From Thermomicrobiales bacterium (GTDB lineage Bacteria > Chloroflexota > Chloroflexia > Thermomicrobiales > UBA6265), in the NCBI GenBank assembly GCA_046328375.1, contig JAXLWT010000022.1, forward strand, positions 20,804 to 84,803: a stretch of DNA of 64,000 bases, read 5' to 3'. This document shows positions 15,448 through 57,404 of this stretch, one piece after another. Position 1 is the first letter of the stretch, and every line of letters begins with the position of its first letter. The notes beneath the pieces were generated by a model, which made no database searches, had not been told where the DNA came from, and saw only the letters and a program-made list of their open reading frames with translations. The position numbers and the translations under genes are program-made.

Positions 15448-16670
15448 GTGACGCTCCAGATATCTTCCGGGACGAGCGTGCGGCCGCGCCAGGTATGAGT
15501 GCGCTGGATGGCGCTCTGCCACAGGCGCACGGCCACGGGGAGATCGACCAGGGGCGAGAGCCAGTAGGTGGCAGGTGGCTGCGTGTATGCCCGCCGGGTG
15601 CCCATGAGCACACCGAACCTCATCGCGAGAAGCGCGAGGTTGACGATCCGCAGCACCGTCACCGCGGGCACCGCCCGAGTGAAACAAGAGCGCCGAGCAA
15701 TTGGCCTGACGGTGGTCGTCGCCGTGCCCCCGAGCAGCCAGGCCGTTGCCAGCACGGCGACCGGTAGCCCCTGCGCGAGCAGCACCTCGGCGAGCCGCTG
15801 CCAGCCATCAAATCCCGCATACCGGTCACGCAGGGTCAGCGAGCGCGGCCAGTTCCGCCAGGTCTCTCGCCAATCGCCGTACATTGCGGTCTCAACAAGA
15901 TCATCAGCCTCATGGAACCCGACGTAATGGCCGGCTTCGGCCAGGGCACGGGCCATGGTCACATCCTCACACCGGGAATCTCGCGCCACGGTGAACCCAC
16001 CAAGGTGGTCGAGCGGTTCGCGCCGGAAGAGCGAGCATTGCCCGTTTGCCTGGACGTCGTGGACGCGGCCGGCATCGTGGCCGGGAATGCCGTACCGGTA
16101 GACCAGGGTCGTCAGCAGCGCCGGGTGCAACAGGCCATCAGCGTCGCCGCTGACAACCTGCCGTGTCGCAACACCCTGCAACGCCACGCCGCTGCGCTGA
16201 GCCTGTGCCAGCAGCGAGCGCACAAGGTCACGATGGGGGCGGACATCGGCGTCGATCGTCAGGATCCAGTTTGATTTCGGATCTGCTTCGAGCAGGCCCA
16301 CCTGCAGCCCGTACGCCTTGCCGTTCCAGTCCGGGGGGATTGGCGCAGCGTCGAGGAGCCGGATGCGCGGATCGCGTGCAGCCGCAGTGCGAACCAGGTC
16401 TTGCGTGCCATCCTGGGAGCCGCCATCGACCACCAGGATTTCCTGCACCTCGGCAGGCTGCGCCATGAGACCCTCGAGGCAGGGGGACAGGCGCAACCGC
16501 TCATTCAGGACAGGCACGATCACCGTCACGCGATCGCTCGCCGCTGAGTCGCCTCTCCGCTGAATTCGTGTCGATCGCGCCGTGCCCAGGAGCCGCATGG
16601 CCACGCGTAGACCTGCCATCACCTGCGCGATGGCGAGCAGGAACAGCAGTGTGCTGCGAAGCGCGCTCAT
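15444..16670 (-). CDS. Family 2 glycosyltransferase, carotenoid glycosyltransferase candidate (CruC/CrtX-like)
   Basis: ATG at 16670 gives MSALRSTLLFLLAIAQV... GT2 core VTVIVPVLNERLRL...ILVVDGGSQDGT...ILTIDADVRP. Confidence 0.75.
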   Translation of the reverse strand: MSALRSTLLFLLAIAQVMAGLRVAMRLLGTARSTRIQRRGDSAASDRVTVIVPVLNERLRLSPCLEGLMAQPAEVQEILVVDGGSQDGTQDLVRTAAARDPRIRLLDAAPIPPDWNGKAYGLQVGLLEADPKSNWILTIDADVRPHRDLVRSLLAQAQRSGVALQGVATRQVVSGDADGLLHPALLTTLVYRYGIPGHDAGRVHDVQANGQCSLFRREPLDHLGGFTVARDSRCEDVTMARALAEAGHYVGFHEADDLVETAMYGDWRETWRNWPRSLTLRDRYAGFDGWQRLAEVLLAQGLPVAVLATAWLLGGTATTTVRPIARRSCFTRAVPAVTVLRIVNLALLAMRFGVLMGTRRAYTQPPATYWLSPLVDLPVAVRLWQSAIQRTHTWRGRTLVPEDIWSVT

Positions 16671-16771
16671 GGAACCACCGGTCCCGGTGGTGGAGTAGCG
16701 TATGTGCGACTCGCGAACGCGCCAGTCCATAGCCTGCAGGCTGTGCATACGTCATTCGGCAGGGAACACGG

Positions 16772-18274
16772 TTGACCGGTAGACAGCGAATCGTCGTTAT
16801 TGGCGCCGGGTTTGGGGGCGTGGCCGCGGCCGTGCGGCTGGCGGCGCGCGGGCACCAGGTAACGCTGCTGGAACAGCGGGACCAACCGGGAGGACGCGCC
16901 TACGTCTACCAGCAGGACGGCTTCACCTTTGATGGCGGGCCGACGGTCATCACCGCACCGTGGCTGATCGATGATCTGTTCGCGCTCGCGGGACGGAAAC
17001 GCGAGGATTACCTCGACCTGCTGCCCGTTGATCCGTTCTACCGCATCTTTTTTCCGGATGGCACCCACTTCGACTATTCCGGCGATGCCGCACGCATGGA
17101 AATCGAGATGCGTCGCCTTGGGGCGAGCGATGCCGACATCGCCGGGTACCACGCCTTTGTCCGCCAGAGTGAGCGCATCTTCGACAAGGGTTTTACGGAT
17201 CTGGCCACGCAGCCCTTCCTGCACTGGCAGGACATGCTGCGCGTGGCGCCAGACCTGATCAGGCTCGAGAGCTACCGCACGGTCTACGGGTTGGTGTCGA
17301 AACACGTCCAGCATGACCGCCTGCGCCAGATTCTCTCCTTTCATCCCCTGCTCGTCGGCGGCAACCCCTTCCAGACCACAAGCATCTACGCCCTCATCCA
17401 TCACCTGGAGCGCAAGTGGGGGGTGTGGTTCGCCCGGGGCGGAACCGGCGCCGTGGTCGATGCGCTGGTGCGACTCTTCACCGACCTTGGCGGAACCCTG
17501 CGACTCTCGACCAGGGCGGAGGAGGTAGTCATCGCGCAAGGACGGGCGGTTGGCGTCCGCCTGGCCAACGGAGAGGTCATCCCGGCGGACAGTGTGGTCT
17601 GCAACGCCGATGTCAGTGGCGCGTACCGCCGGCTGCTGCCGCCGGCCATGCGACGCACCCTGCCTGGGCGGTGGCTTGAACAGATGCGCCACTCGATGTC
17701 GCTGGTCGTGATCTACTTCGGGACAGATCGCCAGTACCGGGGAGGAGACGGACCAGCCCTGGCTCACCACGACATCATTCTGGGGCCACGCTACGAAGGG
17801 CTGCTGCGCGACATCTTCCGCCGCAAGCGGCTGAGCGATGACTTCTCGCTCTACCTGCACATGCCGACGCTCACTGACCCCTCGCTGGCGCCCCCGGGCT
17901 GCGAGGCGTTCTACGTGCTGGCGCCCGTGCCGCACCTGGGGGCGGGGATCGACTGGGAACGGGAGGCGAAGCCGTTCCGTGATCGGGTGATGGGGTTCCT
18001 GGAGCGGAACTACCTGCCTGATCTCTCGCGCCACCTGGTGACGGAGCACATGATCGATCCGCGCCACTTCCGTGACACACTGAGCAGCCACCTGGGGGCC
18101 GCGTTCGCGGTGGAGCCGATCCTCACCCAGTCGGCCTGGTTCCGGCCGCACAATCGCGCGCCGGGCGTGCCGAACCTCTACTTCGTGGGCGCTGGTACGC
18201 ACCCTGGCGCGGGGCTGCCTGGCGTGCTCTGTTCGGCGGTCATCGCCGACGAGCTCATCACCGAGGCGTCGTAA
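16772..18274 (+). CDS. crtI: Phytoene desaturase
   Basis: 500 aa. FAD fold RIVVIGAGFGGVAAAVRLAARGHQVTLLEQRDQPGGRAYV and C-terminal LYFVGAGTHPGAGLPGV. TTG start. Confidence 0.9.
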   Translation: MTGRQRIVVIGAGFGGVAAAVRLAARGHQVTLLEQRDQPGGRAYVYQQDGFTFDGGPTVITAPWLIDDLFALAGRKREDYLDLLPVDPFYRIFFPDGTHFDYSGDAARMEIEMRRLGASDADIAGYHAFVRQSERIFDKGFTDLATQPFLHWQDMLRVAPDLIRLESYRTVYGLVSKHVQHDRLRQILSFHPLLVGGNPFQTTSIYALIHHLERKWGVWFARGGTGAVVDALVRLFTDLGGTLRLSTRAEEVVIAQGRAVGVRLANGEVIPADSVVCNADVSGAYRRLLPPAMRRTLPGRWLEQMRHSMSLVVIYFGTDRQYRGGDGPALAHHDIILGPRYEGLLRDIFRRKRLSDDFSLYLHMPTLTDPSLAPPGCEAFYVLAPVPHLGAGIDWEREAKPFRDRVMGFLERNYLPDLSRHLVTEHMIDPRHFRDTLSSHLGAAFAVEPILTQSAWFRPHNRAPGVPNLYFVGAGTHPGAGLPGVLCSAVIADELITEAS

Positions 18275-18297
18275 ACCCCGCCTGGTCCGCGCGGGCA

Positions 18298-19203
18298 TCA
18301 CAGATCCCCTGGCAGGACGGCGGGGAATCGGGGCATCCGCGCGAAATCGAGCGCCACAGCCGGGAGTGCGCCCAGCTTACGCCGGGTGTGCACCGTGGCC
18401 CGCGTGTTGAAGACGTCGTAATCCAGCTCCTCGATGCGCGTCAGGATAGAGGCGTAGAGCCGGCTCGCCGCCAGGGCCGTCATCTGACCTGCTGGTGAAA
18501 GCGCGGCGATACCTGGCCGCGCGGAGGCATAGAGATTGCGGGCCCGCGCGATCTCGAAGGCCATCAGATCCCGGAAGCGGCCAACCGGGCGGCCCGCGAG
18601 GAGTGACTCGGGCGTGCAGCCGAACGCGTCCAGATCCGCCAGCGGCAGGTAGACCCGCTGTTGCCGTGCGTCCTCCCCCACATCGCGCAGGATGTTCGTG
18701 AGCTGCATGGCAATGCCGAGGTCCACGGCGCGCGGCAGCGCCGAGGCCTGGGAACAACCCAGCACCGGTGCCGTGAGCAGCCCCACGGTCCCTGCCACGC
18801 GGTAGCAGTAGCCGCGCAAGTCATCCCATGTCGCGAATGGCTCCGGCTGCAGATCGCTGCGAATACCATCGATGAGGTCATGGGCCGGCTCTACGGGAAT
18901 GCCGTAGATGGCGCGCGTCGCGGCAAATGTTTGCGCCACCGGGTGCGATGGGGCGTCGAGCTGTGCTTCCCACCCGGCAAGGAGGGCCGTTGCCTCGTCA
19001 CGCGTCGCCGCGCGATCGACGATGTCGTCGGCGATCCGGCAGTAGGCGTAGATGGCGTGCAACGCCCGGCGCCGCGCCGGCGTCTGGAAATGACTGGCCA
19101 GGTAGAAGGTGCGCCCGTGCTCTCGCGTAATTTCCGAGCAGAGGCGCCAGTTCACAGGCGCGTCGCTCAGGCCGGAAGAACGGCTCAACGCGCTACTCAG
19201 CAT
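18298..19203 (-). CDS. crtB: Phytoene synthase
   Basis: 301 aa. Asp-rich motifs YCRIADDIVD and LTNILRDVGEDARQQRVYLP. Confidence 0.9.
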   Translation of the reverse strand: MLSSALSRSSGLSDAPVNWRLCSEITREHGRTFYLASHFQTPARRRALHAIYAYCRIADDIVDRAATRDEATALLAGWEAQLDAPSHPVAQTFAATRAIYGIPVEPAHDLIDGIRSDLQPEPFATWDDLRGYCYRVAGTVGLLTAPVLGCSQASALPRAVDLGIAMQLTNILRDVGEDARQQRVYLPLADLDAFGCTPESLLAGRPVGRFRDLMAFEIARARNLYASARPGIAALSPAGQMTALAASRLYASILTRIEELDYDVFNTRATVHTRRKLGALPAVALDFARMPRFPAVLPGDL

Positions 19204-20237
19204 GGCGTCGTGATCAGATCGGCGCGGCGGAGCTGCGCCAGATCTGCCATGCCGGCGGCAAACATGCTGACGCGCAGTTCCAGCAAGAGGGCACTGAGCA
19301 AGTCATGAGCCCCCGTTTCAGATTCTGCCGCGGCACGCAGGAGGGGCGCGGCAAAGCCAGCCAGGTCCGCCCCGAGCGCGATTGCCACCGCGGCGTCGAC
19401 ACCACTGCGCAGTCCGCCGCTGGCGATGAGCGGAATCTCTGGAAGGGAACGCCGTACCATTTGCACCGCCTCAGCGGTAGGGATACCCCAACCGACGAAT
19501 GCGCCGCTAACCCGGCGCAACAATTCGGTCGGTGCGCGGTGCCGTTCCACCTCGCTCCAGCTCGTACCGCCAGCGCCTCCAACATCAATTGCGGCGACAC
19601 CCGCGTCAACGAGCTGCCGGGCAACCGGCGCGGAAATCCCCCAGCCGACTTCCTTGACGACAACCGGGACATCCAACCCGGCACACAGATCAGCGATGCG
19701 TGAGAGCAGCCCTCGCCAGTCCGTGTTGCCCTGTGCTTGCAGGGCCTCCTGCAGGGGATTGAGATGGAGCACGAGTGCGTCTGCGCCGATCATCTCGACC
19801 GCGCGGCGTGCCTGCTTCAGCCCGTAGCCGGTGTTCAACTGGGCAGCACCGAAGTTAGCGAGCAGAAGGATGTCTGGAGCAACTTCCCGCACCGCGAAGA
19901 GGCTCTCCAGCTCTGGCTGCTCCAGGGCCACACGTTGTGACCCCACCCCCATGGCACACCCGAGCGCCTGGGCCGCGGCGGCCAGGCGGCGGTTGATTTC
20001 CGCGCCGCGTTCCACGCCGCCGGTCATGCCGGAGATCAGGATTGGCGCGGCCAGGCGCCGGCGCAGGAAGGTGACACTCGTTTCTATCGAAGCCAGGTCG
20101 AGTTCCGGCAGCGCGCAGTGCAGCAACCGGTAACGCTCCAACCCGGTGCTGCTCGCGGAAGCCACGGTTTCGCCCATGACGATCCGCAAGTGATCCTGCT
20201 TGCGCTGCGCGTGGTCGCTACCTGTGGGTAAAGACAT
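19197..20237 (-). CDS. fni: Type 2 (FMN-dependent) isopentenyl-diphosphate delta-isomerase
   Basis: QRKQDHLRI, MGVGSQR and VVVKEVGWGIS motifs. Start is ATG at 20237 or 20270. It overlaps the crtB start by 7 nt. Confidence 0.88.
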   Translation of the reverse strand: MSLPTGSDHAQRKQDHLRIVMGETVASASSTGLERYRLLHCALPELDLASIETSVTFLRRRLAAPILISGMTGGVERGAEINRRLAAAAQALGCAMGVGSQRVALEQPELESLFAVREVAPDILLLANFGAAQLNTGYGLKQARRAVEMIGADALVLHLNPLQEALQAQGNTDWRGLLSRIADLCAGLDVPVVVKEVGWGISAPVARQLVDAGVAAIDVGGAGGTSWSEVERHRAPTELLRRVSGAFVGWGIPTAEAVQMVRRSLPEIPLIASGGLRSGVDAAVAIALGADLAGFAAPLLRAAAESETGAHDLLSALLLELRVSMFAAGMADLAQLRRADLITTPC

Positions 20238-20350
20238 TGCGGGCTCCGGTCCGCTGGGATTGTGCAGCATCTTGCCGCTCTTTGGAGTACTGTAACCTGA
20301 ATCTCTAGTGGAGGTTTCGAACGGGTTTTTCGAGGTGTATTCTAAGCCAC

Positions 20351-21325
20351 ATGGAACACAGAAGCGATCGTTCGGAGATGAGCGGTACCGGTAGCGAGGA
20401 AACGCAGCCTGCTGCGCTCCTCCCCATCGGGCAGGTTGTCGCGCTGCTGCAGGCAGAATACCCGGATGTCTCCCACTCCAGCCTGCGCTTCCTGGAGCGA
20501 GAAGGATTGGTGACGCCGCACCGCACCCAGGGAGGTCACCGTCTCTTTACCCAGCACGATGTGGACCGAGTCCGCCAGATCAAGCGCTGGCAGGAACAGC
20601 GGCTCTCGCTGGAAGACATCCGGCAGCGTCTTGAGACGCGTGACACCAACCCGCTAGGTGAACTGGTGGAACGGCTCAGTCATGACCTCCTGAGTGGTCA
20701 GTTAGCCGCCGTGCCTGAATTGTTGCAGGCGGACGACCTGGGGGTGCCGCTGCCCGTGCTCTTCCAGGACGTCCTCCTGCGCGTGCAGGTCGAGGTTGGC
20801 CAGCGCTGGCAGCGCGGCGACCTCCGCGTCGGACAGGAGCACGAAATTACCGAGTTCGTGCGCGAAGCCATCGCGCAACTCTCCTGGCGCCACGCGGTCG
20901 TGCCGCACGGCCCCGCGATCCTGGCCGCCTGCGCGCCTGGAGAGCACCATGACCTGGGCCTGCGGATGGTCGTGGGCTTACTCCGCGCCCAGGGTCGCAA
21001 CGTGCATTTCCTGGGCTCGAATATCGATGTGCCACAGTTGCTCGAGGAAATCCGTGACCGCTTGCCAGCGGCTGTACTCCTTTCAGCGACGCTACCGGCG
21101 CGGTTCCCCGCCTTGCAGCACCTCCTGAAGGAACTCCGTGAAGATACGGCAACCCGGGAGATCCCGGTGGTCGTGGGAGGCGGTATCGTGCGCGTGATGG
21201 ACGCTGAACTCACCGGGCTTGGTGTAATTCCCATCAGGGCCGCTGATCTGATGTCCGTCGTGGACAGCATTGTGCAACTCAGCGAAGAGCAAGCCGCGGC
21301 TCGTGACACCCTGGTGATCGCGTAA
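20351..21325 (+). CDS. carH: MerR-family, B12-binding light-responsive regulator (CarH/LitR type)
   Basis: N-terminal MerR HTH: IGQVVALLQAEYPDVSHSSLRFLEREGLVTPHRTQGGHRLF. Also WQRGDLRVGQEH (W-x9-EH) and GEHHDLG (E-x-H-x-x-G) followed by a Rossmann-like B12-binding domain. Confidence 0.85.
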   Translation: MEHRSDRSEMSGTGSEETQPAALLPIGQVVALLQAEYPDVSHSSLRFLEREGLVTPHRTQGGHRLFTQHDVDRVRQIKRWQEQRLSLEDIRQRLETRDTNPLGELVERLSHDLLSGQLAAVPELLQADDLGVPLPVLFQDVLLRVQVEVGQRWQRGDLRVGQEHEITEFVREAIAQLSWRHAVVPHGPAILAACAPGEHHDLGLRMVVGLLRAQGRNVHFLGSNIDVPQLLEEIRDRLPAAVLLSATLPARFPALQHLLKELREDTATREIPVVVGGGIVRVMDAELTGLGVIPIRAADLMSVVDSIVQLSEEQAAARDTLVIA

Positions 21326-34485: not shown

Positions 34486-35826
34486 ATGAGTGGAGTGATT
34501 TCGCGCCGCAACCTGCTGGGCGGCGCCGCCGGCCTCGGAGCGGCTGTTGCCGGAAGCAAGATCAGCAAGCGCAGCACCGCGTTTGCCGCCCCTGCCGTCG
34601 TGCAGGACACTGGCTCCAAGGTCAAGGTGCTCTACTGGGGATCCTACAGTGATGTCCTGGGCGAGGCCGAGCAGGCCATGGTCAAGATGTTCAACGAGTC
34701 CCAGGACGAGGTCGAGGTTGAGTACCAGTTCCAGGGCACGTACGAGGAAACGGCCCAGAAGCTGACCGCCGCCCTGCAGGCGAAGCAGGCGCCGGATGTC
34801 TCGGTCCTCTCCGACGTGTGGTGGTTCAAGTTCTACCTGAACCGCACCCTGGCCCCGCTGACCGACCTGCTCGCCGCCAACAAGATTGACACCAGTGACT
34901 ACGTCGACTCCCTCTACAACGAGGGCGTGCGCGACGGCGTCTCCTACTGGCTGCCGTTCGCCCGCTCCACGCCGCTCTTCTATTACAACAAGGACATGTT
35001 CGCTGAGGTCGGGCTGGACGCGGCTCCGGAGACGTGGGATGAGCTGGTTGCCGCCGCGCCGAAGCTGGTGCAGAAGGATGGCGACACTATCACCCGCTCC
35101 GCCTTCGCGCACCCGAACAGCGCCTCGTACATCGCCTGGCTCTTCCAGCCGGTCGTCTGGCAGTACGGCGGCGCCTACTCCGACCCCGAATTCAACATCA
35201 TGATCAATCAGGAGAAGGCCGTGGCGGCCGGGGACTTCTATCGCTCCTCGGTCGTGGACGGTTGGGCCACCACGCCTGACGATCCGGAAACGGACTTCGT
35301 CAATGGCCTGACGGCCTCGATCATGGCCTCCACGGGCAGCCTGCGCGGCATCACCTCTGACGTCGGCGACAAGTTCGGCATTGGCACCGGGTTCCTCCCC
35401 AAGGCCGAGAACTTCGGTTGCTGCACCGGTGGCGCCGGCCTGGCGATCCTGGCCGGTTCCCCGGCCGAGAAGCAGGAGGCCGCGTTCAAGTACATCGCGT
35501 TCGCGACTTCGCCGGAGGGCACGGAGTTCTGGAGCCAGAACACCGGGTACATGCCGGTGCGCAAGTCCGCGATCGAAAGCGACACGATGAAGAAGTTCTT
35601 CGAGGAGAACCCGAACTTCAAGACGGCCGTCGATCAACTCCCCATGACGCAGCCCCAGGACGCCGCGCGCGTCTTTATCCCGAACGGTGACCAGATCATC
35701 GGCAAGGGACTGGAGCGGATTACTGTCAATCGCGAAGAGGTGCAGCCGGTTTTCGACGACGTGGCTGCCACCCTCACCGAAGAGGCCCAGCCGGTGCTGG
35801 AGGCACTGGCCGCCCTGCAGGGGTAG
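34486..35826 (+). CDS. Sugar ABC transporter substrate-binding protein with Tat-like signal
   Basis: In-frame ATG at 34486 inside the artefactually long ORF 33709-35826. MSGVISRRNLLGGAAGLGAAVAGSK..., SBP_bac_1-like body. Confidence 0.85.
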   Translation: MSGVISRRNLLGGAAGLGAAVAGSKISKRSTAFAAPAVVQDTGSKVKVLYWGSYSDVLGEAEQAMVKMFNESQDEVEVEYQFQGTYEETAQKLTAALQAKQAPDVSVLSDVWWFKFYLNRTLAPLTDLLAANKIDTSDYVDSLYNEGVRDGVSYWLPFARSTPLFYYNKDMFAEVGLDAAPETWDELVAAAPKLVQKDGDTITRSAFAHPNSASYIAWLFQPVVWQYGGAYSDPEFNIMINQEKAVAAGDFYRSSVVDGWATTPDDPETDFVNGLTASIMASTGSLRGITSDVGDKFGIGTGFLPKAENFGCCTGGAGLAILAGSPAEKQEAAFKYIAFATSPEGTEFWSQNTGYMPVRKSAIESDTMKKFFEENPNFKTAVDQLPMTQPQDAARVFIPNGDQIIGKGLERITVNREEVQPVFDDVAATLTEEAQPVLEALAALQG

Positions 35827-35855
35827 TTCTCCCGCGAATTCGTGGTTTCGAGCCT

Positions 35856-35880
35856 GGGGGCTGGCCAATGGCCAGCCCCC
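35856..35880 (+). terminator. Stem-loop terminator candidate after the SBP gene
   Basis: GGGGGCTGGCC-AAT-GGCCAGCCCCC, a perfect 11 bp stem, followed by TTCTTGT. Confidence 0.65.
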
Positions 35881-35922
35881 TTCTTGTCACGCTTTGCGCC
35901 CGGCCGAGTGCTCGCATTTGGC

Positions 35923-35948
35923 AAAAATACGTATTTTTACTGATGTGC
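35923..35948 (+). promoter_or_regulatory. Conserved AT-rich element, copy 1 (perfect 16 bp palindrome AAAAATACGTATTTTT, then ACTGATGTGC)
   Basis: Lies 77 nt upstream of the GH5 gene ATG. It matches the copies at 37716 and 56656. Confidence 0.7.
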
Positions 35949-36025
35949 TCTGAACGGCTCGAACGCAAACTGAGCTCCACGAACGACACGACGTTCGCAA
36001 GCATTTACGAACCGGGAGCTGATCG

Positions 36026-37198
36026 ATGGAACCGACGAAACTTGACGCCCTCGCTCGCACCCTGAGCACCGCTGACCTCGCGCCGTCACGGCGCGGTCTC
36101 CTCTCTGGATTGGCCGCCGGCGTGGCCGGCCTGGCCGGCCTGACCATGCTGGACGACGTCGACGCCAAGAAGCACAAGGGCAAGAAGAAGAAGAAGTGCT
36201 CGAAGAAGAAGAAGAAGAAGGGCCTCTGCGGCGGAGGCGGTAACACCCCAGACCCATACACCGGACCGGTCTTCACGGTCAGTGGACGCTCCATCCTGGA
36301 CACGGGGGGGGACCCGGTCGCACTCCGCGGCGTCAACAAGATGTCCGTCTTCGATGACAACGACCCACGTGGCAATTCCTACTTCCCGCAGATTGCCCTC
36401 TCCAAGTCGAACACGGTGCGCATCGTCTGGGCGATCGAGGACGACAACGGCCCCACGAATGTCAACGACCTCGCGGCGCTGATCACCAACTGCCAGAACA
36501 ACAAGATGCTGCCGATGATCGAGCTGCACGACGCAACGGGCGATCTCTCGCAGTTGCCGAAACTGGGCAACTACTGGACCCGCAACGACGTGCTGCAGGT
36601 CATCTTCAATGCGGGCGGCAACCTGCTGATCAACATTGCCAATGAGTGCGGTGACGACACGGTCACCGCCAACCAGTGGGTGTCGGCGTACACGCCGGTC
36701 ATCCGCCAGATGCGCAACGCCGGCATTCGCACGCCGCTCGTTATTGACGCCCCGGACTTCGGCAAAAACCTCGAGGTCGTGGTGGCTGGCGCGAATAATC
36801 TGCTGAGCGTTGATGCCAACCTGATCTTCTCCGTCCATCCCTACTGGCCGAAGAACGACGGCGGCGGCGCGACCTTTATCGAACAGCAGTTCACGGCCGC
36901 CTTCAACAAGGGGTTTGCCCTGATCATCGGCGAGTTCTCGCAGTGGGGCGCCTTCAATGGCAACAACAGCATCTGTGTGGGCAATGGCGAGTGTGATTAC
37001 AACGCGATCATGACCAAGGCCAGCGCCAAGGGGTTCGGCTGGTACGCCTGGGAGTGGGGACCGGGCAATGAGTTCGGGGATGCGAACTGCGCCAAGATGA
37101 ACATGACGACGAACGGCACCTTCGCCACGCGGCAGGCAGGTTGGGCCACGGACGTCTTCAACCGCATCGCGGCCGAGTCCAACCCCATCATCGGCTAG
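36026..37198 (+). CDS. GH5 glycoside hydrolase (beta-mannanase-like) with family-specific Tat leader and polylysine spacer
   Basis: MEPTKLDALARTLSTADLAPSRRGLLSGLAAGVAGLAGL...DAKKHKGKKKKKCSKKKKKKG, then a GH5 body with acid/base NIANECG and nucleophile ALIIGEFS. Confidence 0.8.
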   Translation: MEPTKLDALARTLSTADLAPSRRGLLSGLAAGVAGLAGLTMLDDVDAKKHKGKKKKKCSKKKKKKGLCGGGGNTPDPYTGPVFTVSGRSILDTGGDPVALRGVNKMSVFDDNDPRGNSYFPQIALSKSNTVRIVWAIEDDNGPTNVNDLAALITNCQNNKMLPMIELHDATGDLSQLPKLGNYWTRNDVLQVIFNAGGNLLINIANECGDDTVTANQWVSAYTPVIRQMRNAGIRTPLVIDAPDFGKNLEVVVAGANNLLSVDANLIFSVHPYWPKNDGGGATFIEQQFTAAFNKGFALIIGEFSQWGAFNGNNSICVGNGECDYNAIMTKASAKGFGWYAWEWGPGNEFGDANCAKMNMTTNGTFATRQAGWATDVFNRIAAESNPIIG

Positions 37199-37205
37199 TT
37201 CCCCA

Positions 37206-37237
37206 GGGCCAACCGGGCGCAAGCGCCCGGTTGGCCC
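37206..37237 (+). terminator. Stem-loop terminator candidate after the GH5 gene
   Basis: GGGCCAACCGGGCGC-AA-GCGCCCGGTTGGCCC inverted repeat immediately after the stop. There is no T-tract. Confidence 0.55.
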
Positions 37238-37715
37238 CGAAACCGGATCGCAGCGTGCCGGCCGGCGTCCTGGCACCCTGAGGCACATCGCCACAGGGTG
37301 CCAGGAGCCAGCCGTTGACCCGCGGAAGGTTGTGGGACTTCTTGGACACACGAAACGACCGCACAGGTGCCGGACTGCCTCCGGAAGCCTGGTCCGCAGA
37401 CCGAAGCGTTCAGCCGGAAATGGAGTTAGCCGCCTGGATGCTGCCGGCGTTGATGGACTCACTCGCCAGCTCGACGGGCGCGGTGGCAGTTGCTCCGGCG
37501 CTGCCGGGTGGGCCGGGTCTCTGGCTGCGGCGATGGTCGGCAACACCACCGCCGGTAGGCACAAGAAGATGGCTCCCCTCTTCCAGGCGACCATTTTGAG
37601 CACGAATGCGGCTGCCGCCATCGACCATGCCGCGGACCCCATCTGGTCACCAAACCGGCGAGCCAATCTGAATCCAGGTCCGGTGTCCAACCCGACCGCC
37701 GCCATGGCCTCCCCC

Positions 37716-37742
37716 AAAAATGCGTATTTCTACTGATGTGCC
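37716..37742 (+). promoter_or_regulatory. Conserved AT-rich element, copy 2 (AAAAATGCGTATTTCTACTGATGTGCC)
   Basis: Lies 93 nt upstream of ATG 37836. It is identical to copy 3 over 26 nt. Confidence 0.7.
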
Positions 37743-37835
37743 GGCGCCCCCGCGGGCGCATGCTGTGCCCATCCTCGGCAAAGGCCGAGGGCGACAGATC
37801 GGGGACTTCGGTCCAGCTCCAGGAGGAGCATCACG

Positions 37836-38246
37836 ATGGATGGTTCACGTTTTGACAGCCTGATCAGTCGTCTCACTGAGCCCGGTTCACGGCGCCGCGC
37901 GCTCGGGGTGCTTGGCATCTCGGCGTTGGTTGCCGGTGGTCTGGAAATATCGTCACCCGACGTGGAAGCCAGGCGGCGGCGGCGGAAGAAGCACCGCAAG
38001 GGAAACAAGGGCGGCGGTGGGGGCACGCCGCTGCAACTTCGTGACGTCTGCGTACCCGGGCAATCCACGTGTGCCTCCGGGCTGCAGTGTGATAGTCCCA
38101 CCACACGTCACACCTGCAGCAGCACCGTTGAGGGCGTCGATGCCTGGTGCTGCGTGCCGCCCGGCGGAAGCTGCACCGAGTGCGATTGTTGCGGCGATTT
38201 CTACTGCGGTGGGGATGGCACCTGTATCCCGAACCCTGAAGGCTAG
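37836..38246 (+). CDS. Small secreted Cys-rich protein with Tat leader and polybasic spacer
   Basis: MDGSRFDSLISRLTEPGSRRRALGVLGISALVAGGL...ARRRRRKKHRKGNKGGGGG, then about 73 aa containing 12 Cys. AGGAGG Shine-Dalgarno upstream. Confidence 0.8.
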   Translation: MDGSRFDSLISRLTEPGSRRRALGVLGISALVAGGLEISSPDVEARRRRRKKHRKGNKGGGGGTPLQLRDVCVPGQSTCASGLQCDSPTTRHTCSSTVEGVDAWCCVPPGGSCTECDCCGDFYCGGDGTCIPNPEG

Positions 38247-38286
38247 AACCCAATGGTCGTCGGAATCTTCTGACACCTTGCGGTTC

Positions 38287-38318
38287 CTCGCGGCGCTCCG
38301 GCTAAGGAGCGCCGCGAG
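38287..38318 (+). terminator. Stem-loop terminator candidate
   Basis: CTCGCGGCGCTCC-GGCTAA-GGAGCGCCGCGAG, a perfect 13 bp stem. Confidence 0.6.
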
Positions 38319-38398
38319 CGGCGGCACAGCAACCAGATGCAACCCTGTTCGTCATTTCCCACCCGCTTTCCACGCACTACGAATCTGGAGACTCGGCT

Positions 38399-39835
38399 GT
38401 GGATGGTTCGCACTTTGATCACCTCACCAAAGCGTGCCGTACGCTGAAAACACGCCGCACGGTGACCCAGGTGCTGGCTGCAATCCTGGCAAGCGGGACT
38501 ACTCAGGCTGCCCATGTCGATGCCAAACGCAAGAAGCACAAGAAGCCGTGCAAGGCGCCAAAGCAGAAGTGCAGCGGCAAGTGCCTGTCGGTGCTGACCG
38601 ACGACCGCAACTGTGGGTCATGCGGGACCCGCTGTGGCGACGGCCAGAGTTGCAAGAATGGCAAGTGCACGGGCGGCTCGACTCCACAGGACTGCCTTCC
38701 CGGCGAGTGCTGTGAGGACAACCAGGCTTGCGGCACAGATGGTCGATGCCGGGGTGGGGTGTGCCAGCCGAAGCCCACCTGCCACGCCCACGGCGAGACC
38801 TTCCCCGCCACGGACACCACGCCGTGCTGCAGCGAGAACACGGCCAGCAATGCCGGAACCACCGGCGTCGAAATCACCTGCCTCCCCGGCGAACTGGGGA
38901 ACCCGTGCCTGGCCGATGGCGATTGCCGGAGTGGGAGCTGCATCGGCTACCAGTGTGTGGGCTGCTCGGCCGGCGAGGGGGTGTGTAACGGCCGTTGCGT
39001 CTCGCTGAGTTCCCAGAGCAACTGCGGCGCCTGTGGGAACGCGTGCGCACGGGGATCGTATTGCCAGGGCGGGTCCTGCGCATTGCGGTACGTACTGGAC
39101 TTGCAGTGGCCGGTAAGCGCCTGCGACGACGTGTACTCCACCAGCGACGGAGCGGTGTTCATCGCCTTTAGCGGGCAACACTGCGTGCGGGACTACAGCG
39201 GGACAGGCCAGGTTCGGCGCACCTACGGCGTTTGCGGCACACCGGGGACAGACAACTCGCATTTAAAGAACCCCCGCGCGGTCGCGGCGGACGCCTTCTA
39301 TGTCTACGTGGCGGATTACGACAACGATCGCATCCAGATCTTCTCTCGCACCGTGAACTCCAGTGCCATCGGCAGAATCGGCAACGGGAGCGGAAATGGG
39401 AACAACCAGTTCAGAGGACCGAACGACATCGCGTTTGACGCCGACGGGAACATCTATGTCGCGGATTACGTCAATGATCGCGTCCTGAAATTCAGTGACG
39501 CTGGCGCCCACCTGCTGACCTTTGGCGGATCAGGCACTGGCAATGGTCAGATCCAGGGTGCGACGGGTGTTGCCGTCGACGGTCATGGCAACGTGTACGT
39601 CTCGGACCGGATCGGGATCCGGGTCCAGAAGTTCGACAGCGCCGGTCATTTCCTGGACAAGTACGGCACGCTCGGGCACGCGCCGGGAGAAATCAACCTG
39701 CCGCTGGATGTTGAGAGCAACGGCGACGTGTTCATCGAGATTACTTCAATGGACGACCAGCAGCGCGCAACTGGAATCTGGTCCGTATCTTCGAAGCCAG
39801 CTAACGGGCCAGCTGTCCCACGTGGACGCCAATGA
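38399..39835 (+). CDS. Tat leader / polybasic spacer / Cys-rich repeats / NHL-repeat beta-propeller protein (3' end apparently frameshifted)
   Basis: GTG start: MDGSHFDHLTKACRTLKTRRTVTQVLAAILASG...AKRKKHKKPCKAPKQKC. Repeats NCGSCGTRCGDGQSCKNGKC and NCGACGNACARGSYCQGGSC. NHL blades YVYVADYDNDRIQIF, IYVADYVNDRVLKF, VYVSDRIGIRVQKF. A further blade (NLYIADVNYGVVRY) lies in another frame up to 39905. Confidence 0.8.
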   Translation: MDGSHFDHLTKACRTLKTRRTVTQVLAAILASGTTQAAHVDAKRKKHKKPCKAPKQKCSGKCLSVLTDDRNCGSCGTRCGDGQSCKNGKCTGGSTPQDCLPGECCEDNQACGTDGRCRGGVCQPKPTCHAHGETFPATDTTPCCSENTASNAGTTGVEITCLPGELGNPCLADGDCRSGSCIGYQCVGCSAGEGVCNGRCVSLSSQSNCGACGNACARGSYCQGGSCALRYVLDLQWPVSACDDVYSTSDGAVFIAFSGQHCVRDYSGTGQVRRTYGVCGTPGTDNSHLKNPRAVAADAFYVYVADYDNDRIQIFSRTVNSSAIGRIGNGSGNGNNQFRGPNDIAFDADGNIYVADYVNDRVLKFSDAGAHLLTFGGSGTGNGQIQGATGVAVDGHGNVYVSDRIGIRVQKFDSAGHFLDKYGTLGHAPGEINLPLDVESNGDVFIEITSMDDQQRATGIWSVSSKPANGPAVPRGRQ

Positions 39836-50194: not shown

Positions 50195-51623
50195 GGGTGT
50201 ATGGCTTCCAGACCTGCACAGAAGCTGTACGGCGACTATCTCTGAGGAGCGCGGCATCTCCGGTCGCGAGGGCATGACCAACCGCCTCAATGAATTCCCC
50301 GTTCGGGGTGTACAACTCACTGGCGCGAGCATGCGAACCGGCGATCTGCGCTCAAGACGGGTCCTCTCACGCGCAGTCGGCCACGAAGGCGCTGAACATA
50401 TCGTGAAACTGAAAGGTCCTGCGGCGGTCATCCAGTGGTGACACAAAGAGCTTGGCCCGAGCGACGTATGTGATGAAGTCCAGAGCTTCGACCTGTAACC
50501 CAGCGGTGGTCGGCTCGGGCTCGAGATTTATGTTGGGCCGTTAGGCGAGAGGGACGCAGCTTGCTCTGAACGAGAGACTGAGCCAAGACCTCCTCTAACA
50601 TGGCAGGGTCTCACTGCAAAGGCGTGCTGCGCCTACGTCCCTCACGGCCTTGTGGAATACGCAACTCGCCACTCATTCCTTCTTTCTAGACATGTCCGGC
50701 TATGAAACTTGCATCAGGATGTGTGGAATTGCGCAACGGCACGCCGCTTCGCAGACCCAGATCTTCCTGCTACGTACGCGTGTGACCTGTCACGCATGGC
50801 TCCTCACAACGCCAGGCGAGCACATGCGGAGTTGAAACTTCTCCTTCATGTTGGCCAGAGTGCATGAACCCTCACGAGAAAACGTAACAAGTCATTTGCT
50901 CGCTGCAAGTGAGTCACCGTGACTGTCTCGCACCAGAATTACACCCGCGATGCGCCATTGTGGTTCTTCCCGGCGAGAGCGGTCTGAAGCATGCTGGAAT
51001 GAGAGCGTGGTCATCTGATGTGATGCGCTGGGGGCGATCAAAATCGTGAGACGAACTGCGCTTGAACGCGGAGGTAGCCCACGTGGAGGGAACCAGGCTC
51101 ACGATCTCCCTGGTGCTTCCTGGCCGCGTCGGTGGCCGGCGGGCTGCTGTCGGTCTTCTTCACGTCTGGTCCCCGTGCGCGCATTGGCCAGAGCACGGCC
51201 ATGGCTTCGGTTGGACCCTGTGCCCTCGCCCGCAACATCAAACCACTTCGGTCATTGGCCCGTTGCGGGTCGATTCGCCGGAGCCTGGCCAGACGGCCAG
51301 GGTGGGCCGTGGGATCCTCGCTGCTGTCGGGGGTCGGCCGACACGGCCGTCACACCAATTGAGTCGCCTCCATTGGGATGAGTATGCGCGCTAGCAAAGG
51401 AGACGTACGCCGTGCTTTTTTCCGCGATGGGTTCGCTCGGCGACCGTCTGGATTCGAACTCTTTCACTGCTCTTGAAGCAGAGCGCGCTTTGGCAACGAT
51501 TGTGCGAGCGGCTGGATGACCTTGAAAAGCCCGTTGCCGAACGCCTCGTAGCCGCCGGTCCCGGCTCCGCGTCGCCGGTCGCACATGAATCCGCGTAAGC
51601 GGGAAAGGCCCTCGTGCTTCCTC

Positions 51624-52577
51624 ATGCAGAATGCAACGACAGACCATTGGTTCGAGCTCAATATCGCCTGTGATCCGGAGTCCGTCGAAGTGGTCACAGG
51701 AGTATTCACGCACTATGGATTCACGCAGGGCGTAACTGTCCAGGAGTCATTCGCACGAGTTGACGACGGCGACGAATTCGCCGTGGCTCCGCGTGATTTG
51801 GTGCAGGTCAGCACGGTGCTTAGAGCGGCCGATGTCGGCCCTGAAGCGTTTGCAGAGGCGCGCCGCTCGCTGTGGCTGGCGCGGCAGGCGCTCTGGATCA
51901 AGAGTCGATCTCGACCAATCGGGGCGCTGCACGTTCTCGAACGATGCGGAGACGACGGCGCCGTGGCTCGAGAGGGTCAGCCCAACGCACTGCGGGTGGG
52001 GAACCAGGTGGTAGTGAAGGTCCCCGGTTACGATCTCGTTGCAATGCCCGGCGAAACAGTGATTGAGATCGACGCGGGCATCGCGTTCGGCACCGGCCGG
52101 CATTTGTCCACCCAGCTCTGCATGCAGGCGCTTGAGAACGAGATGGCAGTGGGTGCTTCAGTCCTCGATGTCGGCACGGGTTCGGGGCTGCTGGCGATCA
52201 CAGCCGCACTGCTTGGCGCACGGACGGTCGACGCCATGGACATCGATCCGGCCGCGGTGCGTGTCGCGCAGGCGAACGCCGAGCGTAACAGCGTTGGCGG
52301 GAGCGTTCGCATCGCGCTGGGCACCGTTGGGCCAGGCTGCCCGTTTCCGGGACCGTTTGACCTGGTGATCGCCAACATCATTGCCGGCGTGCTGATCGAG
52401 CTGGCTTCAGATTTGGCAGGCGCGGTGGCACCGGGCGGTACATTGATTATTGGCGGCATCATTGACGACAAGGAATTCCTGGTCCATGAGGCCTTCGCTC
52501 ACGAGCATCTCGTCCTGGCCCGCCGGGTCCAGGTTGAGGATTGGGTAGCGCTCGTCTGGAGAAAGCCCAGGACCTGA
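51624..52577 (+). CDS. PrmA-like SAM-dependent methyltransferase, diverged paralog
   Basis: VLDVGTGSGLLAITAALLGARTVDAMDIDPAAVRVAQANAERN and DLVIANI. It lacks the EDW-x3-W box that is present in the second copy. Confidence 0.75.
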   Translation: MQNATTDHWFELNIACDPESVEVVTGVFTHYGFTQGVTVQESFARVDDGDEFAVAPRDLVQVSTVLRAADVGPEAFAEARRSLWLARQALWIKSRSRPIGALHVLERCGDDGAVAREGQPNALRVGNQVVVKVPGYDLVAMPGETVIEIDAGIAFGTGRHLSTQLCMQALENEMAVGASVLDVGTGSGLLAITAALLGARTVDAMDIDPAAVRVAQANAERNSVGGSVRIALGTVGPGCPFPGPFDLVIANIIAGVLIELASDLAGAVAPGGTLIIGGIIDDKEFLVHEAFAHEHLVLARRVQVEDWVALVWRKPRT

Positions 52578-54402: not shown

Positions 54403-54582
54403 CGCAAATTCAGTTGATTCAGCCGAGTCACCGTTGACTCCGCACGCCCTGGCTTCAGGTGAAGCGCTGGAGTTCACGGTTGCCGGTCAGGAGCAGGGGT
54501 GGCGAGGAATCGCTGCCCCTGCTCCTTTTGGGGAAAGGCTCTGCCGTCCCGGTCCACTTCCACGTGGGTGATGGTGTCGTTG

Positions 54583-55581
54583 ATGACAGAACAGACCGAA
54601 ACAGGCTCCTGGGTGGAGTTAGCCGTGAGTTGTGCGCCGGAGGCTGTTGAGATCGTCGCCACGCTCCTGGCGAGTTACGGCCTCAACGACGGCGTCATTA
54701 TTGAGGAGCCGTTCACCCAGGATGTGAACAGTGACGATGTGCTGATTGACTCCTCCCTACCAGTGGCGGTGCGCACCTTCCTCGACGCCAACCGCGATGA
54801 CAGGGAGATCGAGGAGATCGAGACGGCGATCGGCGACGGACTGGCGCAGTTGGACCCGGACTACAGCGTCGGCCGCCTGTTCGTGCGCACGATGACGATA
54901 CACAAAAGGGATGGCGAGGACTGGGCGGAGGCCTGGGTGCGCTTCTCCAACATGGTGCGCGCAGGGGGGCGGGTAGTGGTCACCGCGCCGTGGTACACCG
55001 AGTACGAGCCGGCGCCGGACGAGATCGTCATTCCCCTCGAGACTGGACTGGCGTTCGGCGGCGGTGGGCATGCCGCAACGCAGTTGGCGGTGGAGGGCCT
55101 GGAAGCCATTGTGCGACCAGGCGATCATGTTCTTGATGTTGGCGCCGGTACCGGCATCCTCGCCCTGGTCGCCGCTCGTCTTGGCGCCAGCGCCGTAGAC
55201 GCGCTGGACGTCGACCCTGTCGCAGTGCGGGTGGCGCAGGATAACGTGGAGCGGAATGGCCTGGGGAACATCGTCCGGGTTGAACTCGGCAGCGTTGGTC
55301 CTGGTCAGCCGTTCCCTGGGCTGTACGACGTGGTCGTGGCCAACAATATGGCCAGCATCTTGATCAAACTGGCCACCGGTATGACCAGCGCGGTGCAAGA
55401 CGGCGGAACACTCATCCTCAGTGGCATGCTCGACTCGCGTGAGGCGGAAGTCCGCGAGACGTTCGAGGCTTTGGGCTGGCGTGTCGTGCAGCGAGAGCAG
55501 CGCAAGTGGGTCATGCTGGTGTTGCGCCGGTTTGAAGACGAAGCAGGACACGTCTTGCAGGGGCCGCTCTCCCAGTCATAG
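54583..55581 (+). CDS. prmA: Ribosomal protein L11 methyltransferase
   Basis: ATG at 54583 gives MTEQTETGSWVELAVSCAPEAVEIV... GEDWAEAWVRF box, VLDVGAGTGILALVAARLGASAVDALDVDPVAVRVAQDNVERN. Confidence 0.85.
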   Translation: MTEQTETGSWVELAVSCAPEAVEIVATLLASYGLNDGVIIEEPFTQDVNSDDVLIDSSLPVAVRTFLDANRDDREIEEIETAIGDGLAQLDPDYSVGRLFVRTMTIHKRDGEDWAEAWVRFSNMVRAGGRVVVTAPWYTEYEPAPDEIVIPLETGLAFGGGGHAATQLAVEGLEAIVRPGDHVLDVGAGTGILALVAARLGASAVDALDVDPVAVRVAQDNVERNGLGNIVRVELGSVGPGQPFPGLYDVVVANNMASILIKLATGMTSAVQDGGTLILSGMLDSREAEVRETFEALGWRVVQREQRKWVMLVLRRFEDEAGHVLQGPLSQS

Positions 55582-55649: not shown

Positions 55650-56314
55650 CCTGAAAGTGCATGTGCCGGGAGGCCACTCACCTGCCAGCCCTTGGTGGGA
55701 AGGGGCCTACCAACAGACCCGACGCTGGATCGATGCGGCGGTCTTTGCCACGATGACGCGCGATCTGCGCAAACTGCTGTGCTGGAGCGAGGGGCGCGAT
55801 CCTGACCCCAGTGCGGTGATTTTCGACAGCACCAAGCGGCAATCGACGCCGGAGAGCGGTTCACGGGCTGCCGGCGAAGGCTACAGGCGCAAGCGGTGCA
55901 GCAAGGTCCATCTCGCCGTCGATACCCTCCGGCAGTTGCTGGCGCTGCATGTCACCCCAGCCATGACCAGGATCGCGACCAGATCGCCATCCTGGCGGAG
56001 GCCATGCCGGAGGCGCCGGGACCGACGCTCGAGGTGGCCTACGTCGATCAGGGCTACTCCGGCACGGCCGCACGCGACGCAGCCGCCGAGCACGGCATCG
56101 AACTCGTGGTCGTCAAGTTCGCGCACGCCAAACGCGGCTCGTCCTCCTGCCAAGACGGTGGGGCATGGAGCGATCGTTCGCCTGGGCCACCCGATCCCGG
56201 CGCCTTGCCAAGGACTACGAAAGGTTGCCAGAGACAGTCGAAGGCGTCTACCTCCTCGCGTTCGCCTGCCTGGGCCTCCAACACCTGTTCCATCTCGCAG
56301 CCCCAATTCCCTGA
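55650..56314 (+). pseudogene. IS5-family DDE transposase remnant (5'-truncated, at least two frameshifts)
   Basis: Three frames read in series. First, PWWEGAYQQTRRWIDAAVFATMTRDLRKLL...DPSAVIFDSTKRQST...KVHLAVDTLRQLLALHVTPA. Second, [51 protein letters not shown]. Third, [45 protein letters not shown], stop at 56312-56314. Confidence 0.8.
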
Positions 56315-56655
56315 CAGGCTCCAGGCGTCGGCGGTCAGGGGGCTGATCCAGCGCAGCGCGGCGCGCTCAAGGCCGAGACTGGCACGACAGGTGTCGAGGG
56401 AGCGCGTGAGACGGCAGAAGTGGTGGTGATCCACGATGCAGACTTCCCTCACGGCACGGGCAAGGGACGCCAGCGGTTGCTTTCAAGTTGGGGTCGGCCT
56501 TCGCGTCCTTTGCTCCTCGAAGTCGCCGGCGAACCGGGCCTCGCGTTGATTCAGACGCGATGGTTCCGTATGACACCCTGAAGCACATGGCCGCCCGTGC
56601 TCCCGCACACCTGGCGGGGCGCTCCCAGTCGCCTGGTGCACTGCTGTCATCCCGC

Positions 56656-56682
56656 GAAAATGCGTATTTCTACTGATGTGCC
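56656..56682 (+). promoter_or_regulatory. Conserved AT-rich element, copy 3 (GAAAATGCGTATTTCTACTGATGTGCC)
   Basis: Lies 62 nt upstream of GTG 56745. It is identical to copy 2 over 26 nt. Confidence 0.7.
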
Positions 56683-56744
56683 TGATCGTCGGCGCCCGTA
56701 TCGTGAGGCTGGGACGCGATCAACGATACGGCAGGGAGGCACCA

Positions 56745-57293
56745 GTGGACGCAAACCGGTTTGATGATGTCGCACGTTCGCTCCAGCGTGAGGCGCCGCG
56801 CCGTGGCGCGCTCGGTCTGCTGCTGGGTGGAGCCCTGGCCCTGACCGGGATCGCGGAGACGGTCGCGAAAGGCAAAGGGAAAGGCAAGAAGAAGAAAAAG
56901 AAGGATGTCTGCGAGAAGGCGAAGAAGGCCTGCAAGGGCAACTGCGGTATGGGAGAGGCGTGCTGCTCCAGTTTCGACTGCAGTTCCTGCCAGAACCTGT
57001 ATTGCAACGGCAACCAAGGCGGGGCCAAGGCTGGTGTGTGCGGCTGCGATGCCCCCGATGTCCTCCACAACGGTCGCTGCGGTAGCAAGCCAGTCTGCAT
57101 TCCGGCAGGGCAGAAGCGCGACTTCTACGACGACAGAATCTGTTGCAGTGGGAGCGAGGTCACGGACATCAATGACCCCGCGTACGGCACCTGCCTCCCC
57201 GGAGTCCTGTGGTGCCTGTCGGATGCCGATTGCACCGGCGGGTCATGTCGCGGCTACCAGTGCTATGCGCCCGAGCTCGGCTGCAATCTCTGA
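56745..57293 (+). CDS. Secreted Cys-rich protein with Tat leader and polylysine spacer
   Basis: GTG at 56745 with GGGAGG upstream. VDANRFDDVARSLQREAPRRGALGLLLGGALALTGIAETVAKGKGKGKKKKKKDVCEKAKKACKGNCG..., then a Cys-dense body. Confidence 0.8.
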   Translation: MDANRFDDVARSLQREAPRRGALGLLLGGALALTGIAETVAKGKGKGKKKKKKDVCEKAKKACKGNCGMGEACCSSFDCSSCQNLYCNGNQGGAKAGVCGCDAPDVLHNGRCGSKPVCIPAGQKRDFYDDRICCSGSEVTDINDPAYGTCLPGVLWCLSDADCTGGSCRGYQCYAPELGCNL

Positions 57294-57366
57294 ACTCCCC
57301 GATCGGGAGCATCAGCAAGCGCGCAAGCAGCAGACAGCACAGAGGGTGACTGTGCTCCTGTGAAAC

Positions 57367-57404
57367 GCGATCTCCGCCGGCTCATCTCGGCCGGCGGAGA
57401 TCGC
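57367..57404 (+). terminator. Strong stem-loop terminator candidate
   Basis: GCGATCTCCGCCGG-CTCATCTCGG-CCGGCGGAGATCGC, a 14 bp perfect stem. It is preceded by a second hairpin, AGCACAG-N7-CTGTGCT, at about 57343-57363. Confidence 0.65.

Follow-up and report, generated by a model that had tools for sequence, protein, structure and literature searches.

An AT-rich dyad element coupled to a predicted -10 hexamer upstream of exported-protein genes in an uncultured Thermomicrobiales bacterium

Several described regulatory sites come close to the element reported here. The lux and tra boxes of LuxR and TraR are palindromes of 18-20 bp that lie near position -42.5 and are read by dimers with GerE-type helix-turn-helix (HTH) domains. 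The Zur box of Firmicutes has the form TCGTAAT-N-ATTACGA, and sites of the SARP and OmpR-PhoB type consist of heptamer direct repeats with an 11-bp period that replace the -35 hexamer. In the canonical class II promoters of NtcA, a cyanobacterial regulator of the CRP/FNR family, the sequence GTAN8TAC is centred at -41.5 and is combined with a TAN3T -10 hexamer (PMC3898017). Here we describe an AT-rich element of 26-27 nt that lies upstream of three genes for exported proteins in a 64-kb stretch (64,000 nt; hereafter, the window) of chromosomal DNA from an uncultured Thermomicrobiales bacterium (GenBank assembly GCA_046328375.1, contig JAXLWT010000022.1, positions 20,804 to 84,803). The element is very probably a DNA regulatory site coupled to a promoter and, judging from its sequence layout, we lean towards an activator site of the class II type.

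A first-pass annotation of the window had reported three copies of the element, all on the plus strand, at 35923-35948 (copy 1, AAAAATACGTATTTTTACTGATGTGC), 37716-37742 (copy 2) and 56656-56682 (copy 3). A direct read of the DNA reproduced the letters of all three copies, their distances of 77, 93 and 62 nt from the respective start codons, the identity of copies 2 and 3 over 26 nt and the perfect 16-bp palindrome in copy 1. The flanks are unrelated, as had been claimed, in that the alignment of the copies ends at the edges of the ~27-nt block. When the degenerate 25-mer given in that annotation was searched across the window with up to three mismatches allowed, exactly three matches were found, while 0.00 were expected from 100 shuffles. 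We also scanned the window with a position weight matrix (PWM) built from 15 related copies. The three sites scored 49.7, 48.3 and 45.0 bits, in the range of 45-50 bits, and the runner-up scored 17.9 bits and was nothing other than the palindromic half of copy 1, reversed. The scores were bimodal, with true sites at 35-50 bits and all other positions at 23 bits or below. No further PWM site occurs in the window, in agreement with the observation that the family members at 38399, 46465, 57439 and 14370 lack the element.

In each of the three copies, a -10-like hexamer lies exactly 20 nt past the final ATG of the element, and is followed each time by a G. These predicted hexamers, all on the plus strand, are CAAACT for copy 1 (35966-35971), CATGCT for copy 2 (37759-37764) and TATCGT for copy 3 (56699-56704), with inferred transcription starts at about 35977-35980, 37770-37773 and 56710-56713, respectively. 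Given a frequency of 0.0067 per position in the window, the probability that [CT]AnnnTG occurs by chance at all three sites is ~3e-7. The comparison was then widened to 29 distinct high-GC instances and 79 low-GC chance matches, which were taken partly from a metagenome scan and are counted among the matches listed. The pattern nAnnnT was found exactly at +20 from the ATG in 25 of the 29 high-GC instances, with one each at 18, 19 and 21 (P ~6e-34 for 25/29 at +20 against a window background of 0.031). By contrast, just 12 of the 79 low-GC chance matches, which served as a negative control, had nAnnnT at +20, and there was no positional peak. The A and T of the hexamer reach 1.63 and 1.56 bits in the information-content table, and both were unconstrained in every search pattern. 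Among the 16 distinct Thermomicrobiales copies with such a hexamer, 11 have C as its first base.

The position of the -35 hexamer, with a 17-nt spacer to the -10, reads ATGnnn (ATGYGC or ATGCCG) and is occupied in copy 1 by ATGTGC (35943-35948, plus strand). A recognisable -10 (yAnnnT at +20 in 25/29 copies) is combined with a poor -35, and no TTGACA-type match was found. Because the -10 hexamer lies 20 nt downstream, the element would cover the stretch from about -57 to about -30 in a promoter whose -35 is weak, and transcription would start about 7 nt past the -10. A scan for the sigma-70 consensus pair (TTGACA / 17 / TATAAT, 16-18-nt spacing) in 35600-38500 and 56300-58300 found no pair, and only the -10 half was recognised. 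The annotation had held that the element does not look like a sigma-70 -35/-10 pair; this remains correct for the element by itself, but not for its setting, since it is rigidly coupled to a sigma-70-type -10. It had also judged the element not to be a sigma-54 site, and indeed neither TGGCAC-N5-TTGCW nor GG-N10-GC occurs in the three copies, where the only GGCAC lies on the other strand, has TAGAA after it and is directed away from the genes. We rejected a -35 hexamer within the element (TTyTAC or CTGATG), since spacers of 20-25 nt would be required, and a leaderless open reading frame (ORF) beginning at the conserved ATG, since the next codons differ (TGC, CCG, CGC and CGT). A 134-aa ORF that a metagenome record (L006 253-657) places between the GH5 stop codon and copy 2, overlapping the element, is probably spurious. 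The only terminator called by the scan, at 35856-35880, belongs to the upstream ABC-transporter gene.

The symmetry that is conserved among the copies is ATnCGTA-N4-TACnnAT, an imperfect inverted repeat centred near -42.5. An A-tract lies ahead of it, and its last 2 bp fall within the weak -35. Its invariant and free positions are mirrored, with AT, a free n and GTA on the left against TAC, a free nn and AT on the right. On the plus strand of the window, the left arm is ATACGTA in copy 1 (35927-35933) and ATGCGTA in copies 2 (37720-37726) and 3 (56660-56666), the right arm is TACTGAT in all three (35938-35944, 37731-37737 and 56671-56677), and the spacer is TTTT in copy 1 and TTTC in the other two. 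This mirrored conservation supports the earlier proposal of a DNA-level regulatory site with dyad symmetry. The particular dyad proposed at that time, AAAAATACGTATTTTT, did not hold up: it is lost in the diverged copies of contigs L012 and L143, as in AAAATGCGTAATTTT (L012), and is missing from diverged sequences such as AAAATGCGTAATTTTACGGATG. The symmetry described here also takes in the part that had been called an invariant 3' half.

The arms of the element occur at two spacings. The metagenome scan used a pattern with one base more between CGTA and TAC than in the window element, and gave at least 120 matches, most of which were the low-GC chance matches used as the control above. Among the matches listed, at least about 15 coherent high-GC ones take the form AAAATACGTAGTTTCTACGGATG, with a non-random choice of bases at the free positions and with the -10 placed according to the +20 rule. 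The core of this longer variant, CGTAG-TTT-CTACG, is a perfect inverted repeat. The two spacing forms are matched by the patterns AAATNCGTANTTYTACNNATG and AAATNCGTANNTTYTACNNATG: the arms are 4 or 5 bp apart, and the proximal arm stays equally far from the -10 in both. Measured from the first base of the inferred -10, the dyad centre lies 30 (N4) or 30.5 (N5) nt upstream, that is, at about -42.5 or -43 from the inferred start.

A general scan of 308 kb for inverted repeats followed by a -10 gave a single match without CGTA, at L145 8082-8102. This copy, AAAAATC-GGGA-ATTC-TCCC-AATG, keeps the A-tract and the ATG and has a TAGCAT -10 21 nt after the ATG, but both arms are replaced. Because the two arms have changed in concert, the dyad appears to be read by a dimeric protein. 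The arm-swapped copy lies 90 nt past the gene for a 916-aa STAND-type regulator with HTH_17, AAA, TPR and GerE domains. Two further such regulators occur no more than 12 kb from it. From its sequence, the regulator with its arm-swapped site may represent a paralogous regulator-site pair.

We next considered the conservation of the element in related genomes. A scan of a genome collection, with one genome per species and a strict 19-base pattern, gave three true matches, all of them promoters of orthologous GH5 genes, and one chance match inside an ABC ATPase gene. The element is thus present at the orthologous GH5 promoter in two further metagenome-assembled genomes (MAGs), in which the flanks have diverged. 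Further contigs were gathered through homologues of the protein encoded at 37836, a selection that introduces no bias for the DNA motif, and these contained more copies (L007, L012, L142 and L143). Alignments of two orthologue groups showed four conserved blocks, namely the element, the -10, a gene-specific hairpin in the 5' untranslated region (5'UTR) and the Shine-Dalgarno sequence with the start codon, while the sequence of the 20-nt spacer between element and -10 varies freely in both groups. These phylogenetic footprints agree with the expectation that a functional element would be conserved in orthologous upstream regions despite diverged flanks. The -10 of copy 1 is kept as CA.A.TG in five GH5 orthologue promoters. 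The palindrome CGAACG-N6-CGTTCG (35980-35997, plus strand) is kept in the GH5 orthologues right past the predicted start, and the hairpin CCTCGG-N6-CCGAGG (~37772-37789, plus strand) is conserved for the 136-aa gene after the inferred start. These 5'UTR palindromes could be 5'-terminal stabilising stem-loops or further operators. That of the GH5 gene resembles the LexA-type box CGAAC...GTTCG, with the wrong spacing. No recognisable element was found at orthologues of 50-56% identity (L010, L011, L144 and L145 P0052), and therefore the element marks a subclade.

The genes downstream of the element share a common design. In the window, copy 1 precedes the gene for an exported GH5 cellulase-family protein (36026-37198, leader MEPTKLDALARTL..SRRGLL, followed by a Lys-rich linker), copy 2 that for a 136-aa exported Cys-rich protein (37836-38246, leader MDGSRFDSLISRL..SRRRAL) and copy 3 that for a 182-aa exported Cys-rich protein (56745-57293, leader VDANRFDDVARSL..PRRGAL), all on the plus strand. 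NCBIfam gave no name for any of these three proteins, and the 136-aa protein is identical to the NCBI MAG protein U0075_16510. Across seven contigs (the window, L001, L002, L007, L012, L142 and L143) we found 17 distinct copies, and every one of them faces an exported-protein gene on the same strand, 60-145 nt away. In 16 of the 17, the protein begins with the same N-terminal leader, M-[DE]-x-x-[RK]-[FL]-D-x-L..SRRxxL, then a Lys-rich linker and then a Cys-rich or GH5 domain, and the 17th has a twin-arginine translocation (Tat)-like signal and a Lys-rich linker. That all 17 targets are exported supports the earlier suggestion of a small regulon for this Cys-rich and GH5 family.

Several features of these loci are worth recording. 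In L002 (60-760), the promoter, 5'UTR and signal/leader are of the GH5-gene type, and the mature part of the protein is a Cys-rich domain instead of GH5; this suggests a promoter-leader module that is used again with different cargo. Back-to-back pairs of elements on opposite strands drive divergent genes at L024 78-139 and L143 1246-1385. In L012, the gene after the copy at 9137 (9184-9400) is apparently frameshifted, with the Tat-like signal in one frame and the Lys-rich linker and collagen-like GPT repeats in the next, probably as a result of a long-read assembly error. In the window, an intergenic stretch of more than 500 nt (37199-37715) separates the GH5 stop codon from copy 2. The 37836 gene may share a transcript with the Stig1/NHL family member at 38399-39835, and the 56745 gene with the family member at 57439-58050. 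Strong GC-rich hairpins without a T-run lie between each driven gene and the next family member, at 38275-38320 and 57363-57405, and the 37836/38399 and 56745/57439 pairs may be operons or may be split by T-less terminators.

The longer variant has a wider range of downstream genes. In L027 and L131 it drives GG-leader peptides beside an ABC exporter with a C39 peptidase, and the closest named relatives of these loci are Thermomicrobiales and Chloroflexota MAGs. It also lies upstream of a SARP regulator (L035), a Tat-signal PAP2-like protein (L101) and a secreted protein (L127). In addition, several copies lie just past thiD, ahead of a predicted transcript of ~75 nt that ends in a terminator, and the ThiD proteins are closest to those of MAGs labelled Spirochaetia. 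The hosts of the thiD contigs look like diderm bacteria with this NCBI label, and one such contig also has a TolC-like gene and a sigma-54 activator. Since variant copies occur both in Thermomicrobiales-like and in Spirochaetia-labelled MAGs, the module is not limited to one phylum, with the taxonomic labels being those of MAG names. The thiD-linked transcript (L148 10828-10950, also in L018, L026, L081 and L089) has the -10 TACAAT or TAGTAT and a conserved GGGAAAGTGgAAAGG; it matched no Rfam family, and the alignment supports the terminator hairpin alone. A scan of viral contigs with the correct pattern gave nine matches, all of which were low-GC chance matches and none of which had a -10. 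A literature search for a described Chloroflexi or Thermomicrobiales motif returned nothing relevant.

Based on these results, we consider that the layout is that of a class II activator site, because the dyad at about -42.5 overlaps a weak -35, a TAnnnT-type -10 follows at a fixed distance and the arrangement has a single orientation. A dimeric HTH regulator would bind the dyad and recruit RNA polymerase with the housekeeping sigma factor in class II style, as regulators of the CRP/FNR/NtcA or LuxR type do. Transcripts would begin ~7 nt past the -10 and would carry 5'UTRs of 30-80 nt that open with the gene-specific hairpin. The exported proteins, with their M-D-x-x-R-F-D...SRRxxL leader, Lys-rich linker and Cys-rich or GH5 domain, would then be co-induced as a regulon.

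Several points weigh against this interpretation. The positions of the -10 and the start are sequence-based inferences, and so is the -42.5 centre that depends on them. Many promoters of high-GC bacteria have weak -35 hexamers, and a poor -35 is thus no proof of dependence on an activator; moreover, AT-rich palindromes over the -35 in GC-rich genomes are often repressor boxes of the Fur/Zur type. If the terminal ATG belongs to the -35, the fixed distance of 20 nt could be imposed by sigma alone. The core positions of the longer variant were fixed by the search pattern and its set was drawn from the matches listed, and the Thermomicrobiales copies are partly related by descent and not fully independent. 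Finally, no regulator gene adjoins the elements in the window, where the nearest are three of the TetR type and one MerR-B12 type.

The element can be compared with the described systems. The NtcA promoters share with our element a GTA...TAC dyad beside or over a poor -35, a TAnnnT-type -10 at a fixed distance, a centre within ~1 bp of -41.5 and the fact that the site defines a regulon. However, the NtcA half-sites are 8 bp apart, whereas those of the element are separated by 4-5 bp (GTA-N4-TAC in the clade of the window or GTA-N5-TAC; GTA-N8-TAC was not found), and the element has additional outer AT dinucleotides and an upstream A-tract. Its host belongs to the Thermomicrobiales, NtcA is not implicated there and the targets are exported-protein genes rather than nitrogen genes. 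The element resembles the lux and tra boxes in being a palindrome, here of 18-19 bp, at about -42.5 over the -35 and in having secreted or secondary-metabolism-like products, but its sequence is unrelated to known lux boxes, and the 64-kb window contains neither a GerE regulator nor an autoinducer synthase. STAND regulators with a GerE domain lie beside family loci in L145, L011 and L007, and a link to such a regulator is suggested by proximity at these three loci. With the sites of SARP and OmpR-PhoB, the longer variant shares a possible reading as TACGTAG-N4-TACGGAT (7+4+7), and a SARP gene (Trans_reg_C and BTAD domains) lies directly downstream of one copy in L035. On the other hand, it is CGTA and not TAC that is conserved in the left "repeat", where TGCG and TCCG are found as well, and the mirrored arrangement of the free positions is that of an inverted repeat. 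Moreover, 21 nt rather than ~8 nt separate the end of the promoter-proximal repeat from the -10, and the window variant has a period of 10 bp. We therefore rejected the direct-repeat reading, as the conservation pattern suits an inverted repeat better and the L145 copy is itself an inverted repeat.

The Fur/Zur box bears on an alternative that we regard as unlikely but still credible, namely that the dyad is an operator on which a dimeric repressor (of the Fur/Zur, TetR, MarR or Xre type) blocks sigma region 4 from the -35 until a signal relieves the repression. An AT-rich palindrome of ~18-19 bp in GC-rich DNA, overlapping the position of the -35, is what such an operator would look like, and no activator is required to explain the constant -10 distance if the ATG lies inside the -35. 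The longer variant has the core aCGTAgT-T-TcTACGg, which is similar to the 7-1-7 Zur box of Firmicutes, and this variant has CGTA...TACG five bases apart with AAAT outside, as well as the overlap with the promoter. Nevertheless, the arms of the element hold one extra base between AT and CGTA, the right outer half is replaced by the -35 region and neither a 7-1-7 nor a 9-1-9 palindrome was found. Operators usually vary in position relative to the promoter, whereas a single distance is kept here in 25/29 copies, before unrelated genes and in at least two lineages, and such a strictly fixed -10 is also unlike Fur/Zur sites. The core promoters, with A as the first base of the -35 and C at -12, seem weak, and the genes downstream (exported Cys-rich and GH5 proteins, GG-leader peptides, a SARP regulator and a putative small RNA) include no zinc, iron or other metal-homeostasis genes at any copy. 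Distinctly less probable is a promoter for a dedicated alternative sigma factor or sigma adaptor, in which the block would be an extended -35 read by that factor. The one-directional and strictly fixed -10 geometry, the failure of the generic sigma-70 scan to pick up the motif and its occurrence in more than one phylum-level lineage fit such a factor, but a conserved block of ~25 bp is much longer than a region-4 footprint, its sub-blocks TACnnAT and TTyTAC would need a spacer of 20-25 nt and the -10 is a generic TAnnnT/CAnnnT with no special motif. In addition, the conservation is dyad-symmetric, the L145 arms changed together and the distance between the arms shifts by 1 bp between lineages while the -10 distance is unchanged.

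Three further alternatives received less weight. We see little chance that the block is an UP-like A/T tract, contacted by the alpha subunit, or an intrinsic bend that constitutively boosts a weak promoter independently of any protein. Its location (-57 to -38) and its A-tract and T-tract content suit the UP zone, but UP elements are not characterised by invariant C and G positions (here the CG of CGTA and the C of TAC) or by free positions that mirror each other, the arm-swapped GGGA/TCCC copy retains the symmetry and not the AT content, and the motif is confined to one gene family per genome. It had also been suggested that the invariant 3' half, TACTGATGTGC, opens a transcribed 5' leader or a small-RNA binding site. 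Although this half is invariant in the three window copies, the proposal is extremely improbable: the conserved -10 lies 20 nt downstream, placing the element upstream of the likely start, and the 3' half varies in relatives (TACCAATG and TACGGATG) in step with the dyad pattern. Folding of the three copies with their flanks gave no shared or unusually stable structure (z-scores 0.79, -0.71 and -0.11, with differing structures). Rfam searches gave no match in the window at gathering thresholds, as the first reading of it as no recognised riboswitch would predict, and nothing relevant in 13 related loci at E<=0.1; a scan for tRNA and tmRNA found none. The idea that the copies are ends of a mobile or repeated element (a miniature inverted-repeat transposable element, an insertion-sequence terminal repeat or a recombination site), named at the outset as one that would undo a regulatory role, can be set aside almost completely. 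Several near-identical copies do lie in one region, and a DDE transposase fragment (55657-56346) lies just upstream of copy 3. Yet the flanks are unrelated on both sides with no inverted partner copy, every copy is single, directional and 60-145 nt upstream of a gene on the same strand, diverged genomes retain the element at orthologous sites and the viral contigs gave low-GC chance matches only.

The other genes near the element in the window are ordinary housekeeping and transport genes. A carotenoid cluster at 14569-21325 (phytoene synthase, glycosyltransferase and Caroten_synth) is next to a MerR-B12 regulator of the CarH/LitR-like type (20351-21325), and by its gene content it looks like a light-controlled pigment locus. 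Two PrmA-like methyltransferase paralogues (51585-52577 and 54499-55581) lie ~2 kb apart.

In summary, the class-II-type activator site that we favour would be a cis-element of a familiar type, and what is new is the motif and its regulon, not the mechanism. A broader interpretation, which we consider doubtful, is that the element belongs to a cross-phylum promoter module of Thermomicrobiales and Spirochaetia-labelled MAGs that is read by a novel RNA-polymerase-recruiting factor, either a new activator family or a PafBC-like sigma adaptor. Through that factor, exported Cys-rich proteins would be controlled together with a SARP regulator, a small RNA and GG-leader (bacteriocin-like) peptides and their exporter, which would amount to a conserved switch that soil bacteria use for antagonism or secretion. 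The spacing variant and the arm-swapped copy offer natural experiments on the co-evolution of regulator and site, and the element could be used as bait for its regulator in DNA pull-down or DNA affinity purification sequencing. The motif is sharp enough (35-50 bits against 23 bits or less) for its complete regulon to be located in any related MAG. In a lineage with neither genetics nor mapped promoters, it provides a precise and testable promoter architecture, with arms, spacer, -10 and predicted starts, and it would tie exported Lys/Cys-rich and GH5 proteins, a family that is poorly understood, into one co-regulated set.

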